A stretch of 37,692 bases of DNA from a virus (taxonomy: Duplodnaviria; Heunggongvirae; Uroviricota; Caudoviricetes): IMG/VR virus record IMGVR_UViG_2541047799_000005. The stretch is one strand, 5' to 3'. Of this stretch, positions 10,470-24,472 are shown piece by piece. Positions within the stretch are counted from its first letter, which is position 1. Each line of letters begins with the position of its first letter. Made by a program: the position numbers and the translations under genes. Below the pieces are notes generated by a model. That model worked only from the letters and a program-made list of their open reading frames with translations. It had not been told where the DNA came from and did no database searches.

Positions 10470-11781
10470 TTATACCGGTAAAGCTTCAGGTGTATTAAGT
10501 AATTCTTTATTGGTATCAGATGCCAGGTTACCTGCAGCCAGCGGTGCCGGTGCACCCTGCATCAGACGATCCAGCGCAGTGTCACTGCGCGCCTGTGCAC
10601 TCTGTGGTGCTGCGGCCAGAATGCGGCGGGCCGTTTCCACGGTCATTCCGGGGGTTTCGGCCAGCACGCGTGCCTGTTCTTCGCGTCCGTGAGCCTCCTC
10701 ACAGTTGAGGATCCCCATAATGCGACTGTTTTCTGCCGCAACCGCTGCGGTGATCTGCGCGTTCACGTCCGGCTGCGCCGCGCTGGCGTTCTCGCCCTCC
10801 GTCGCTTGCACCACCTCAGTAACGTCAGCCTGCGAAGCAGTGGCTGAAACAGTTGTTGATTGAGTCTCTTTGGTCATTCGCCCTCCTGAGAGACGGGATT
10901 TACGTGCATCCAGTGCATCACGCATGACGGTGATCGCATCGGTACTGTTAACAAGTTCATCAGCCAGTCCGGCATCAATGGCCTCCTGACCGCTGTACAC
11001 TGCAGCCTCGGTATCCAGCACAGCCTGCACGGACAGGCCGGTATATGCCGACACCTTCTGTGCAAACATCCGGCGGGTTGCGTCCATCCGGGACTGCAGT
11101 GTCTCCCGGACGTCATCCGGAAGATGGCTGTAGGGGTTGCCATCCACCTTATGGCTGCCGCTGTAAATCAGCGTGATTTCCACACCCTGTTTCTCCAGCG
11201 CAGCACCGTAATTACTGTGAGCCATCATGACGCCGATGGAGCCTGTCCGGGCGGTCTGCGTGACCAGACGCCGGGAGGCGGCACTGGCAAGCAACTGACC
11301 TGCACTGCAGTTCATGTCGTTGGCCAGCGCCCATACCGGCTTTATGTCACGCACACGGGCGATGATGTCAGCGCAGTCAAATGCCCCTGCCACCATCCCG
11401 CCTGGCGTATCCATATCGAGCAGAATGCCGTCCACCATCGGGTCGCTGGCAGCCTGTTGCAGACGGGCGATAATGCCGTTGTAACCGGTCATCCCCGAAT
11501 ACGGCTGCAGCGCTCGCGTCCGACTGACCAGCGTGCCGGACACCGGCAGCACGGCGATGCCGTTCATGACCTGATAACTGCGGGCCTGTCGTGGTCCGTC
11601 ATCATCAACGGATAACGCCAGCGCCGCGGGTGCCTCTCCGGCAGTCAGGCTGTCGCCGGATACCGCATCCGTCAGGCGGCTGATCCCAAGCTGGCCTGCA
11701 AGCGCACAAAAGAAAACCCGCGCATAGGCGGGTTCAAGCATCAGCGGCTCATTAAAGGCCATACTGGCAATATGCGGGAGA

Positions 11782-17609: not shown

Positions 17610-18077
17610 TCATCGAAGGCATTGCGTCCTGATGTATTCCTGAAGCGTTCTCAATGCTGTTTGGTCGCGGATAATTCCGTCCCGGATACCGAGAACGTTT
17701 CGTCCAGCAACTGGAGAGAGTTCGACGGTGGCATCATTGCCCATGCCGGAGGCGCTGGAGGTTTCGGCTGAGGATGGCACAGGGCATTTTCCTTTGACGA
17801 GCACCCGACCACCATTATCAAGCTTGCGCCGAAGAGCATCATTTTCAGCTTTCGCATCAGCTAACTCCTTCGTGTATTTATCATCGAGTGCATCAGCATC
17901 ACGCTGGCGCTGCTGCATGTCAGTAATGGTGGCGTTCGCCTTCTCCAGTTCACTGGCCTTGTTATCGCGCTGTTCTTTGTAGGCGATTGCATTATCACGG
18001 TAATGATTAACAGCCCATGACAGGCAGACGATGATGCAGATAACCAGAGCGGAGATAATCGCGGTTACTCTGCTCAT
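17610..18077 (-). CDS. Rz: Inner-membrane spanin Rz
   Basis: ORF contains [31 protein letters not shown]... like lambda Rz; its ATG overlaps the R stop (ATGA). Confidence 0.85.
17651..17857 (-). CDS. Rz1: Outer-membrane lipoprotein spanin Rz1, embedded in Rz in the +1 frame
   Basis: 68-aa [24 protein letters not shown]...PPAPPAW...: lipobox before Cys and a Pro-rich segment, as in lambda Rz1. Confidence 0.8.
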
Positions 18078-18571
18078 TGTTTCCCCCACAAACAGACTTC
18101 ACGCTCAATCTCACGGCGAGTCATCAGTCCTTTCCATTGATTACCGCCAGCGTATGTCCAGCGCCGTAGCTGATCACATGCGCCTTTAATATCACCCTGG
18201 TTTATTTTGCGAAGAAGCGTCGATGTTCTGAAATTGCCAGCACCCACGTTGTAGACGAACGAGTAAAGAGCGCCGCGCGTTGTTTCCGGTATATCGACTT
18301 TGATGTACCGGTTAATTTGTCTGGCGACAGTGGCAAGGTCTTTATTCAGGAGGGCTTTGCACTCTGCTTCGGTATACGTTTTACCGGGAATGATGTCTTT
18401 TCCTGTATGCCCGTAACATACAGTCCATACACCAACTATGTCTTTGTAAGGATTATGTCTCACACCTTCCAGACCATCGTTACCACTTGGGCCAGTGATT
18501 AACACAGATGCTATAGCAATAGCCCCGCCACCAATAGCAGCAGCAACAGCTTTTCGTAATGATGGAGGCAT
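18074..18571 (-). CDS. R: SAR (signal-anchor-release) endolysin, phage-21 R type lysozyme
   Basis: 165 aa; N-terminal weakly hydrophobic Gly/Ala-rich segment [18 protein letters not shown] followed by a T4-lysozyme-like domain; paired with a pinholin. Confidence 0.85.
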
Positions 18572-18786
18572 TATTCACCTCTCGCAGCCTTGCGCTTATC
18601 TTCTTTAATCTTGAAATAAAGGTTTGTCAGGTACGTCAGCAGGCCAAATACCAGGCTACCCAGCACACCTATTGCTGCCCACTGTGAGGGCGTGACTTTA
18701 TCGAGCAGCTGTAAAAACCAGTACCCGGCACTACCTGCTGAGGTGCCATAGGCGACACCCGTTGTTAACTTATCCATGGATTTCAT
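18571..18786 (-). CDS. S: Pinholin S (phage 21 S21 type)
   Basis: 71-aa [29 protein letters not shown]...[13 protein letters not shown] matching recalled S21; two TM helices; stop overlaps the R start. Confidence 0.85.
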
Positions 18787-18895
18787 AACCCCACCTCGCA
18801 GACAAAGCGGGTGTAAATTGAGGGAATACTACGAAACGTAACAGACTCGGAGTCAGTGAATAACTCAGGTATTGGGTTATCAGCTAATATCGAGA

Positions 18896-18930
18896 CTCAA
18901 AAAATGGAAAAACCCGCTCGACGGCGGGTT
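18896..18930 (-). terminator. Intrinsic terminator on the minus strand about 110 nt upstream of S; candidate tR' of the late operon
   Basis: 7-bp stem AACCCGC/GCGGGTT (18911-18930) followed on the minus strand by UUUCCAUUUUUU. Confidence 0.5.
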
Positions 18931-19359
18931 TAAGCTGTGTGACGAAGTAACCACTCTTAACAGCATAACCAATTTTTTACGTACGTAAACCACTAAATGA
19001 TATTTGCGAGAATGCTACCGAGTATTGAAAACACCACTACAAATACATAAGCAAATCTCAACAAATAACCAACAAATAATTTCCAGCGTTATTTTTAGCC
19101 AATTTAAATTGAACCTTCAAATTATAGAGCACTTATAAATAACAGCCATTAATATAAATTGGCTAATAGATTTATTTTTATTCAGCCAAGAGCCATGAAT
19201 AGGATTCGATAGAAAAAAGTTCAGATAAAAATAGAGATCTACTTCACAAATTAAACGAGAAACCAAAACTTACATCTTGAAATAATCACATTGATTAGAT
19301 GAATATTTATCGCGCAGTGACATCATTTTTTAATAATAGTTCAAAAAAAAGGGCTCACG

Positions 19360-20442
19360 ATGAAAAAATTAACAGTGGCAATTTCTGCTGTAGCTGCATC
19401 AGTACTGATGGCGATGTCTGCTCAGGCAGCTGAAATTTATAATAAAGACAGTAACAAGCTGGATCTGTACGGGAAAGTTAATGCTAAGCACTACTTCTCC
19501 TCTAATGATGCAGATGATGGTGATACTACTTATGCCCGTCTTGGCTTCAAAGGTGAAACCCAAATCAACGATCAACTGACTGGTTTCGGTCAGTGGGAAT
19601 ATGAATTCAAAGGCAACCGCGCTGAATCTCAAGGTTCTTCCAAAGACAAAACCCGTCTTGCATTTGCAGGCCTGAAATTTGGTGATTACGGCTCAATCGA
19701 TTACGGCCGTAACTACGGTGTAGCATACGACATCGGTGCGTGGACTGACGTCCTGCCAGAATTCGGTGGTGATACCTGGACCCAAACAGATGTGTTCATG
19801 ACTGGTCGCACTACTGGTGTTGCAACTTATCGTAACAACGACTTCTTTGGTCTGGTCGATGGCCTGAACTTTGCTGCTCAGTATCAGGGTAAAAATGACC
19901 GCACTGACGTAACTGAAGCCAATGGTGATGGTTTCGGTTTCTCCACTACTTATGAGTATGAAGGATTCGGCGTGGGTGCAACCTATGCTAAATCAGATCG
20001 CACTGACGGTCAGGTCGCCTATGGTAAGAGCAAATTCAATGCCTCCGGCAAAAATGCGGAAGTATGGGCTGCAGGCCTGAAATATGATGCGAACAATATC
20101 TATCTGGCTACCACATATTCTGAAACTCAGAATATGACCGTTTTTGGTAATAACCATATTGCAAACAAAGCACAAAACTTTGAAGCAGTAGCACAATATC
20201 AGTTTGACTTCGGTCTGCGCCCATCTGTTGCTTACCTTCAGTCAAAAGGTAAAGACCTTGGTGTTCATGGTGACCGAGACTTAGTCAAGTATGTCGATGT
20301 CGGTGCTACTTACTACTTTAATAAAAACATGTCCACTTTTGTTGATTACAAAATCAACTTAATTGACGATAGTAAGTTTACCAAAACAGCTGGTATTGAT
20401 ACTGATGACATCGTTGCTGTAGGTCTGGTTTACCAGTTCTAA
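19360..20442 (+). CDS. nmpC: Outer-membrane general porin, NmpC/Lc family (phage-borne OmpC-like)
   Basis: 360-aa ORF with signal peptide ending AQA and porin hallmarks ([17 protein letters not shown]..., C-terminal ...VAVGLVYQF); matches recalled DLP12 NmpC / PA-2 Lc; opposite strand to Q and the lysis genes. Confidence 0.85.
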
Positions 20443-20580
20443 TCTGATTACGAAAAAGATATGTTGCGGGAGGCGTTGCCTCCCCAACATATAAGTGGCT
20501 CCCTCAAGCCACTTCCTTTAGAAGCACAACCTTGCTTCTAACTATATAAACCTTCTGTTATATATTACCCTTTATTTTTG

Positions 20581-20616
20581 GGGGCGTCTCAACGCCCCAT
20601 TTTTAATAATTTTTAG
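20581..20616 (+). terminator. Intrinsic terminator for the porin gene
   Basis: GGGGCG-TCTCAA-CGCCCC hairpin followed by ATTTTTAATAATTTTT on the plus strand. Confidence 0.6.
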
Positions 20617-20631
20617 TAAACAATTGGCATA

Positions 20632-21015
20632 TTAATTAGAGTTATTAACAACGATATCCATCTCTAACCGGATATCTAATGCCATTAACATCCCTTCAAT
20701 TATGCCCTCAGCCTTTTGTAACCTTTTCCCGATATAACCATCAGAGCAGCAATGCTTACCTGCCAGTGACATGAATGTCATACCGACTACATAATAATCT
20801 ACTAATAAATCGTGCAAATCGCTGTTGTTCTTTTTCAGACGGGCCATGCACCCGCAAATGATCATCGCGTCATCGTCACAACATTGCGGGCGAGATTTTA
20901 CTTTTGAAGGAATTAATCCCTTAAAACCGGCGGCAATGGACGACCAGGTCACATCTTCATGATTATTAGCCGCCCACGCTCCCCAACGCTCAAGAACCAT
21001 CTGAATATCACGCAT
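20632..21015 (-). CDS. Q: Late-gene antiterminator Q (phage 82 / DLP12 QuuD type)
   Basis: ORF contains [34 protein letters not shown]... matching recalled QuuD; start set at the internal Met (127 aa). Confidence 0.8.
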
Positions 21016-21237
21016 CAACTTACTCCACAAAACTCAGACCAGAACGCCAATTACAAGCAAAAATCAACAAAACAGTATTAGTTGATTGTTATCTCTGACT
21101 TCATACTCCTGCTCCTGTCAGTGTTTTGGCGTAATTCTTCAGTATTCGGTAATCGGTCAAAACAGAGCCGGGGAAACGATATAAGCGCAGACGCCCCCAG
21201 CGGTGGCGAAGAAGTTCTGCCATATTAAACTCAAACA

Positions 21238-23444: not shown

Positions 23445-24053
23445 TTATTGCAACAGATTCTGACGGAAATATGGTAACACACGACTCCACTTATCATCCT
23501 GCCACGGTTGGAATTTTACATGCGCCGTTTCTCTGGCAAGGATTTCTCGCGCCCTGTTGAGTATCCGAGGATATTCTTGTTCGATTGAAGTGAATCTACC
23601 TGCTTCGCGATGCTCTGCGACCTGAAGAAGGGGCGTAACGTTCTGGCAGGCGGTTAACATCGTATCACTTGCTCGCCATAACCAGGCGAGTGTGCAAAGT
23701 TCGTTATCAGTGAATTGTTTTGTGATTGGGGATTGTTGAACTTCTCGATCGAGAATATCCAGAACCCAGCGGCGGAATTCTTTGGCCACAGGAGTACGAG
23801 CAAACATGGCGATCAAATGGGCTCCGCGAAGGCTAAATACTCGAGACTCCTGCATTCCACGAGGGGTGGTCACTTTGACCACCCTTGTCATCATATCTGT
23901 GAATTCATCTGAGTGCCGAGAGTAAATGCGCTGAACTGCTTTATCGTCCGCATATTCCAGTGCTAAACCAACTTCAGTGGCAGTAAGCCAAATTCTGTTA
24001 TTGTGGCAAATCGGGGTAAACGTCGTTTTGTGGAATGCTAATTGAGTAGTCAT
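23445..24053 (-). CDS. Bro-N/AntA-like DNA-binding protein (antirepressor or Roi-like)
   Basis: 202-aa ORF; N-terminal pattern F..F..I...IWLTATEVGLALEY...AKEFRRWVLDIL is typical of Bro-N/antirepressor N-domains; nin-region location like HK022 roi. Confidence 0.45.
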   Translation of the reverse strand: MTTQLAFHKTTFTPICHNNRIWLTATEVGLALEYADDKAVQRIYSRHSDEFTDMMTRVVKVTTPRGMQESRVFSLRGAHLIAMFARTPVAKEFRRWVLDILDREVQQSPITKQFTDNELCTLAWLWRASDTMLTACQNVTPLLQVAEHREAGRFTSIEQEYPRILNRAREILARETAHVKFQPWQDDKWSRVLPYFRQNLLQ

Positions 24054-24472
24054 AGTATCACCTCATCAGGTTAACCATCACCACCAACGACGCCAATCGA
24101 CTGGTGGTGAACTGTGTAAGGTTGGCGTAACCGGCTACTCAAACCCGGCGCTTCCGAAGAAGCCCTCACACAGCCCACCATAATTTGGGCATAGCCGTGC
24201 TTAGCGCACAAAAAAACCGCTTAACGCGGTATGCGTTGAGTAGTATCCCGGGACGCCAATCCCGTGTGCCGATTTTGCGGCAACGCACAGAATATAGCGC
24301 CGGATAAATCATGTCGTCAACCCCAGTAAATGGACACCATGATGATCACATCCATAGCTGCTACAACAGTTACAACTACCTCAGGCCAAAACATAACGAT
24401 TTCCATATCACCTTTAGCCGCCAGACGAATAGAGACTCCCAATTCTGGCTGTCGAAGTAAAACACCGAATGT

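Follow-up and report, generated by a model that had tools for sequence, protein, structure and literature searches.

The window (the whole 37,692-nt stretch of DNA that was analysed, IMG/VR record IMGVR_UViG_2541047799_000005) carries a lambda-like prophage in reverse orientation: genes for tail, head and terminase lie below 16 kb, lysis genes occupy 17.6-18.8 kb, and beyond 21 kb come the nin genes and those for replication and immunity. Around the porin gene, the minus strand encodes rusA, ylcG, Q, an S21-type holin, a lysozyme and Rz. The initial annotation, made from the sequence alone, had placed an NmpC/Lc-type porin gene antisense between Q and the lysis cassette, and the open reading frame together with its Pfam matches bears this out. 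The genes of the locus are the following.

20632-21015, minus strand: Q antiterminator gene, quuD type (PF06530 match, E 9.7e-54; named quuD by RefSeq in an identical locus)
19360-20442, plus strand: intact NmpC/Lc-type general porin gene, 360 aa (Porin_1, E 1.9e-151)
17610-18786, minus strand: lysis cassette (Pfam Phage_holin_2_1, Phage_lysozyme and Phage_lysis; RefSeq essD, rrrD)
18571-18786, minus strand: S21-type holin gene with the dual start MKSM
18074-18571, minus strand: lysozyme gene (Pfam Phage_lysozyme)
17610-18089, minus strand: Rz gene (Pfam Phage_lysis)

A mechanical ORF call takes the Q gene further upstream, as far as the TTG at 21030. The Q protein shares 79% identity with Q933W and has a distant match to Q21 (PDB 6p18/6jnx) that covers residues 13-92 only (E 7e-8). 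The porin and Q genes are convergent and their stop codons are 189 bp apart, while a spacer of 573 bp separates S from the porin gene. The stretch upstream of the porin had been described as AT-rich, and its GC content is indeed 26-30% across 19000-19400, compared with about 50% in the flanking phage genes.

The 2.6-kb stretch from Q to S has 100% identical copies in many complete E. coli genomes, and at least 80% of it is present in approximately 2,393 of 5,426 complete E. coli genomes; the E. coli copies are annotated as quuD, an ompC-type porin, essD and rrrD. The comparisons with quuD-nmpC-essD of DLP12 and with lc of phage PA-2 that had been suggested for this region proved apt, both having the same layout. 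What the locus carries is the NmpC/Lc porin, a cargo gene well known from lambda-like E. coli prophages and already studied.

The match of the porin to Porin_1 is full-length (residues 29-360 against profile positions 1-337 of 337), and in the PDB it is closest to OmpC/OmpK36 (E about 1e-137). The N-terminus is the annotated Lc signal peptide, cut before AE, and the C-terminus is YQF. The protein is 91% identical to Lc of PA-2, as against 63% to OmpC of K-12. In nucleotide sequence the gene is nearly 100% identical to lc over its 5' half, while identity in the 3' half is 46-84% per 50 nt and reaches 100% again shortly before the stop codon; the amino-acid differences from Lc are grouped in several short internal stretches. 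This patchy identity of the 3' half and the clustering of the differences make the gene a mosaic allele of an already known phage porin. In the variable stretches where the window porin differs, the K-12 NmpC sequence reconstructed without IS5 has Lc-type residues. More than 100 genomes contain an identical copy of the porin.

A control region is predicted upstream of the porin gene.

19231-19306, plus strand: predicted porin control region (CRP-like site taken from the PA-2 record; promoter hexamers read by eye)
19231-19251, plus strand: CRP-like site, annotated in the PA-2 record and mapped onto the window
19277-19306, plus strand: putative porin promoter, -35 TTGAAA at 19277-19282, 18-nt spacer, -10 GAATAT at 19301-19306 (sequence reading)

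The 150 bp before the porin start codon are almost invariant among eight divergent copies, and the CRP-like site is centred at about -72.5 relative to the predicted start of the porin promoter. This promoter (near 19277-19306) would lie about 350 bp from the late promoter pR', which is described below. Neither was detected by the promoter scan, and both are assigned by homology and conservation.

On the other side, the porin gene is followed by a cluster of hairpins.

20443-20606, plus strand: ipeX region, the 3' UTR of the porin gene (fold z = -8.4; 100% identity to K-12/PA-2)
20459-20492, 20493-20514 and 20518-20541, plus strand: ipeX hairpins (folding)
20581-20598, plus strand: porin intrinsic terminator, followed by ATTTTT (terminator scan)
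20451-20492, minus strand: possible intrinsic terminator for transcripts leaving Q, formed by the first ipeX hairpin on the other strand and followed by CTTTTTCG

Folding of the cluster at 20443-20631 gave -68.2 kcal/mol, compared with -36.9 kcal/mol for shuffled sequences (z = -8.4), and the stretch 20436-20640 is 100% identical to the 3' UTR of K-12 nmpC and PA-2 lc. About 167 nt separate the porin stop codon from the end of the terminator T run, which matches the reported length of ipeX, an RNA of about 167 nt that derives from the porin 3' UTR and represses the host porins OmpC and OmpF. By sequence identity, the hairpin cluster is ipeX and its last hairpin is the porin terminator. Lysogeny by PA-2, whose receptor is OmpC, reportedly lowers OmpC through the 3' end of lc. 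A search of Rfam at gathering thresholds found no match in 18000-21100, and no family covers ipeX; the Rfam matches in the window were limited to C4 and isrK, near 24.1-24.3 kb. The structure of ipeX is predicted from folding energy, since the covariation analysis of its hairpins found no compensatory changes among seven copies that are too similar (93-100% identity).

The initial annotation had counted three hairpins at 20443-20631 and read them as separating the convergent Q and porin transcripts. The presence of hairpins is supported by the folding energy, but four of them are strong; the role of a buffer between the transcripts is compatible with the cluster but gives an incomplete account of what is a 3'-UTR RNA, ipeX. 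Read on the minus strand, the first ipeX hairpin (20451-20492; -21.3 kcal/mol, z = -4.7) could stop transcripts leaving Q. Its stem is bulged, and it was missed by a simple terminator scan.

The late control elements were found in the spacer between S and the porin gene. When this spacer was compared by BLAST with phage genomes, one segment, 18908-18990, matched approximately 280 Stx and other lambdoid phages. On the minus strand this segment aligns with the annotated pR', qut and first hairpin (a rho-independent terminator) of phage 933W, and the following elements can be assigned.

18962-18989, minus strand: late promoter pR', -35 TTTACG at 18989-18984, 16-nt spacer, -10 TATGCT at 18967-18962
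18932-18955, minus strand: initial transcribed region and candidate qut, with the predicted start at A18955 (near-invariant in nine phages)
18896-18931, minus strand: hairpin terminator, candidate tR' (stem 18931-18910, then TTTTTCCATTTTTT)

The annotated pR' of 933W reads TTTACG-N16-TATCAT, and its -35 overlaps the end of Q. The hexamers in the window agree with the consensus at 8 of 12 positions, which is under the threshold of the scan. The window has a single copy of the initial-transcribed motif, at 18935-18958 on the minus strand. In an alignment of nine phages with differing flanks, the block from the -10 to the hairpin (GTTAAGAGTGGTTACTTCGCCACACAGCTTAAACCCGCCG..CGAGCGGGTTTTTT) is almost invariant and the flanking sequence is unrelated; the Q genes of three of the nine were checked, and these belong to PF06530. 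If transcription in 933W begins 7 nt past the -10, its start and the end of the second terminator are exactly 258 nt apart, and 258 nt is the length of the pR' leader of the Sakai Stx phages as mapped by dRNA-seq and Term-seq (PMC7547250). The assignment of the start to A18955 is therefore based on experimental data in a close relative. The distance of 258 nt was used for this comparison instead of the published Sakai coordinates, which do not match the current RefSeq version.

The candidate tR' has a stem of eight pairs (18931-18910), five of them G-C, with a 6-nt loop and a folding energy of about -12 kcal/mol. A minus-strand terminator had been proposed at 18896-18930, about 110 nt before the S start codon; such a structure is present, and its stem is kept in nine divergent phages, in which changes are confined to the loop. 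The terminator scan alone is not significant (6 terminator-like sites against 4.3 expected from shuffles). No other terminator-like structure was found by scan or folding between this hairpin and S. A pR' leader terminated here would be only about 50 nt long. Since the mapped 3' end of the Stx leader is at the second terminator, at +258, the hairpin is best called a candidate tR'.

Elements through which Q could act were sought in the same alignment. The candidate pause element TACTTC, at +7 to +12, lacks the final T; the corresponding sequence is TACATT in 933W and TACTTT in two other phages, and the nine-phage alignment revealed no convincing -10-like sigma70 pause element in the initial transcribed region. 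Between the -35 and the -10 there is a semi-conserved CG-N2/3-CG(T/C)AAAAA motif with dyad symmetry, which in the window reads CG..CGTAAAAA and is a candidate Q-binding element. No direct repeat of the TGAGCA type known from phage 21 is visible in the pR' region.

The record of PA-2 contains a second 'CRP site', which maps to 18935-18955. As a regulator of the porin this site was rejected: the porin start codon is 405 bp away, and the sequence of the site is kept in phages that have no porin. Because of this conservation in phages lacking the porin, it is better explained as part of the pR'/qut late leader, to judge by the alignment, and the old annotation should be treated with caution.

The late promoter is thus located beyond the porin gene. 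The initial annotation had inferred this arrangement, with the porin between Q and pR', and the alignment with 933W pR' and the 79% identity to its Q argue in its favour. It had allowed pR' and qut the whole AT-rich stretch 18931-19200; the location is right but the spread is not, as pR' lies directly against the terminator, with its -35 at 18989-18984. The distance from the Q stop codon to pR' is 1.64 kb, compared with 22-45 nt in related phages with an empty slot. A MAFFT alignment hinted that part of a Q933W-type 3' end might survive upstream of pR', an idea that BLAST did not support and that was discarded.

The locus is most likely a porin-ipeX cargo module lying between Q and pR', with late control exerted by Q at the 18955 start. 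The sequence is homologous to other Q genes as far as about 20656-20683, just past the LEMD codons, and homology resumes at 18990, one base before the -35 of pR'. From these limits, the module is about 1.67 kb long, extends antisense from approximately 20655 down to 18991, and provides the final seven codons of Q (IVVNNSN). Phages 1720a-02 and Stx2_499 have nothing in the slot, and about 45 nt lie between their Q stop codon and the start site. The terminator of the module is clear by scan, and its promoter is predicted from the invariant upstream region and the CRP-like site.

Several other explanations have to be weighed against this one. In lambda, 21, 933W and 1720a-02, pR' takes its usual place immediately downstream of Q, which in the window would make late transcripts run antisense through the porin gene. 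Such transcripts, offered in the initial annotation as the outcome that would speak against it, are unlikely from the sequence, and a pR' at that position is extremely improbable: the scan found no promoter-like site on the minus strand of 20443-20631, just downstream of Q, this stretch is occupied by the ipeX hairpin cluster, and the pR' homologue with its conserved leader is present only at 18908-18990. The uniqueness of the leader motif, the alignment with 933W and the lack of a promoter-like site after Q in the scan together support the placement of the late promoter beyond the porin. It is more conceivable, but still unlikely, that the working promoter of S-R-Rz is a sigmaE-dependent one, back to back with the porin promoter, and that pR' is secondary.

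19311-19343, minus strand: sigmaE-like promoter reported for the DLP12 lysis cassette, tGAACTa at 19343-19337, 16-nt spacer, TCACT at 19320-19316

The DLP12 study cloned a '-121 to +650' fragment and credited the RpoE-dependent start site to Rueggeberg 2015 (PMC7918800). Its forward primer maps to 19413-19432, which, given the '-121' coordinate, corresponds to a minus-strand +1 at about 19311; the reverse primer has no match as printed, and fits by eye with small indels and an agreeing amplicon length. The sigmaE-like hexamers at this site, with the start near 19311, are a reading of the sequence, and the region around 19311 is invariant among copies. This invariance is equally explained by the porin 5' UTR, however, the block 18908-18990 occurs in phages without any porin region, and Q proteins of the PF06530 family are loaded near the promoter, at a pause that depends on sigma70. 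Transcripts from the far-upstream sigmaE-like promoter would also meet the hairpin at 18931-18910.

That this hairpin acts mainly as a Q-loading signal or a leaky attenuator, with the lysis genes expressed at a low level in lysogens, is doubtful, though the likeliest of the alternatives. The polymerase in Stx phages passes the equivalent hairpin without Q, the leader ending 258 nt downstream; the hairpin and the initial transcribed region are conserved as one block; the U tract in the window is interrupted (TTTTTCC); and the DLP12 lysis genes are reported to be expressed, with phenotypes, in K-12 (PMC7918800). The hairpin nevertheless has the standard form of an intrinsic terminator, RNAs of 50 nt can drop out of RNA-seq and Term-seq libraries, so that the Stx data leave termination possible, and uncontrolled expression of the holin would be harmful. 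Considering the passage of the Stx polymerase and the lack of a second terminator before S in the scan and folding, late control may be leaky to some extent, which would fit the reported activity of the DLP12 lysis genes in K-12. As for the cargo itself, a silent, decaying porin without a role is very unlikely. K-12 nmpC is a pseudogene, interrupted by IS5, and IS1 or IS5 insertions are found at the same locus in other genomes, but in the window the reading frame, signal peptide, YQF end, control region and terminator are all intact, an identical copy persists in more than 100 genomes, and the differences from Lc form a mosaic in the 3' half and are not scattered, which is consistent with selection.

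Under the preferred reading, a porin-ipeX module between Q and a pR' controlled by Q, the porin would be transcribed rightwards in the lysogen, and the ipeX tail of its transcript would lower OmpC and OmpF. The cell surface would be altered in this way, and phages that use OmpC, PA-2 among them, would be excluded. Late transcription is predicted, by homology, to start at about 18955 and to proceed through the conserved 24-nt initial transcribed region. Without Q it would stop, at least partly, at the hairpin 18931-18910, leaving a leader of about 50 nt. Upon induction, Q produced from the early rightward operon, 1.7 kb away, would load onto RNA polymerase at pR', and the Q-loaded polymerase would read into S, R and Rz.

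Lysogenic conversion by the PA-2 Lc porin is established. The locus is in this respect a textbook case, combining a prophage porin with an RNA that lowers the host porins, and in a large fraction of E. coli strains the module would alter both the permeability of the outer membrane and the receptors available to phages. What the present analysis contributes is the location of the late promoter, leader and terminator in the prophage and the identification of the hairpin cluster as ipeX.

The conserved leader made it possible to examine the same position in other prophages. A scan of viral contigs for the leader motif yielded at least 120 loci, a redundant sample; among those listed, 98 have a Q gene upstream on the same strand. 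The slot between Q and pR' contains this porin, antisense, in 55 of the 98 listed loci, is empty in 12, and holds other cargo in the remaining 31, in 30 of which the main ORFs are likewise antisense. The porin module can be regarded as a moron in that it is absent from the same position in related phages, as in the 12 empty slots among the loci listed. The other cargo includes the Kiwa system (KwaA, E 1.9e-83; KwaB, E 2.3e-150) and the candidate defence protein PDC-S20 (E 3e-177), a KAP-NTPase, with PifA and QatA coming next among its PADLOC matches. Also found in the slot were PDC-M53A and B, PDC-S42, an HNH protein, an OLD-like ATPase together with a C5 methylase, NA37-family proteins, a pair of DUF6731 proteins, and proteins of 427 and 339 aa.

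These data tentatively suggest that the Q-pR' junction in lambdoid prophages of the QuuD/Q933W type may be a hot spot for antisense cargo protecting the lysogen, bordered by the LEMD codons on one side and by a portable 80-bp promoter-leader-hairpin cassette on the other. The porin-ipeX module would be the commonest occupant of this slot, its receptor swap possibly being a defence equivalent to the Kiwa, PDC-S20, PDC-M53, PDC-S42 and ATPase-plus-methylase cargo. The pattern of cargo in the slot is clear, while defence action from that position is uncertain. As anti-phage systems occupy the slot in other prophages, it offers a cheap route to new defence candidates.

Among known systems, the closest is DLP12 (qsr'), the cryptic prophage of K-12, which has the same gene order and orientation (quuD - ipeX - nmpC - essD/rrrD/rzpD). 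The ipeX sequence and the alignable stretch from pR' to the hairpin are identical in the two, and the DNA from Q through ipeX is 97.8% identical. In DLP12, IS5 disrupts nmpC after codon 346, while the porin gene in the window is intact and its allele differs from K-12 NmpC in several short internal stretches; unlike cryptic DLP12, the window prophage also retains head, tail and replication genes. Phage PA-2 lc (GenBank J02580) shows 90.9% DNA identity over the whole 2.8-kb record, with an identical ipeX 3' UTR and 5' half of the gene. Besides the mosaic 3' half, the window porin differs from PA-2 Lc in being five residues shorter.

The Stx phages 933W and Sakai Sp5 share the late control elements: the -35, the spacer motif, the initial transcribed region and the first hairpin can all be aligned. 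In 933W the second terminator, at +258, ends the leader, which yields StxS (PMC7547250), whereas the window has no second terminator before S and carries 1.67 kb of cargo between Q and pR'. Phage 21 Q (PDB 6P18, 6JNX) belongs to the same PF06530 family, a link made through the PDB match. By analogy with this paradigm, promoter-proximal loading at a pause and narrowing of the RNA exit channel would be expected for the window Q; the TGAGCA direct repeats of phage 21 are absent from the window, in which a dyad-symmetric element overlaps the -35 instead. The defence hot spots of the P2/P4 type likewise combine a fixed position with interchangeable cargo that includes known defence systems. They belong to another phage group and another genomic position, whereas the slot in the window extends from Q to pR' and its cargo is antisense.

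The junction between the late antiterminator gene Q (20632-21015, minus strand) and the late promoter pR' (18962-18989, minus strand), which in the window forms a slot at about 18990-20656, is a hot spot for cargo. Among the 98 listed loci from viral contigs with Q upstream on the same strand, a redundant sample, this slot is occupied by the porin gene in 55, is empty in 12 and holds other cargo in 31, antisense in all but one of the latter (30 of 31). The non-porin cargo includes Kiwa, PDC-S20, PDC-M53, PDC-S42, an HNH protein, and an OLD-like ATPase with a methylase; several further cargo proteins at the listed loci have no family match.

The NmpC/Lc-type porin gene of the window is itself a mosaic with respect to lc, its counterpart in phage PA-2. 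Identity falls to 46-84% per 50 nt in the 3' half (19868-20402, plus strand), while the flanks of this stretch are 100% identical to lc, and the amino acid changes relative to Lc are confined to discrete short stretches. Such clustering points to recombination, or to certain parts of the protein being under diversifying selection.

The reported sigmaE start at about 19311 (minus strand; position derived from fragment coordinates in PMC7918800) and the predicted porin start at about 19313 (plus strand) lie back to back, and their promoter elements overlap (19311-19343, minus, versus 19277-19313, plus). Therefore, envelope stress could conceivably redirect polymerase away from the porin, in favour of the leftward transcript. 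The "CRP binding site" of the 1986 PA-2 record (J02580, 1067-1087) corresponds to 18935-18955 of the window, where it coincides with the initial transcribed region of pR', a conserved sequence. Since the conservation extends to phages lacking the porin, the site was probably misannotated in that record.

The -35 region of pR' is overlapped by an element with dyad symmetry. In the phage alignment its symmetry is kept and its sequence differs from phage to phage; it may be a binding site for Q or another operator.

Dyad element at the pR' -35 region, followed in each case by a run of A
Window, 18968-18990, minus strand: TTTACGTACGTAAA
Phage 933W: TTTACGATCGTAAA
Phage SfII: GCGTACGC
Phage 1720a-02: GCGGTCCGC

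Between two head-region genes (11710-11735, minus strand) there is a hairpin, GAACCCGCCTATGCGCGGGTTTTCTTTT, that closely matches the stem of the pR' terminator, to which it is probably unrelated; it is likely a terminator in its own right.

At 24100-24282 (minus strand) Rfam matches a C4 antisense RNA with a score of 74.8 bits and, beside it, isrK with 58.7 bits; the pair adjoins a gene (23445-24053) whose product carries the P22 antirepressor C-terminal domain; together they look like a secondary immunity module of the P1/P7 C4-ant type. The ribosome binding site of the holin gene S is located inside a predicted stem, CCCGCUUUGUCUGCGAGGUGGGG (18787-18830, minus strand), directly followed by a dual-start MKSM motif, an arrangement resembling the way in which S21 and lambda S control the choice between holin and antiholin starts.
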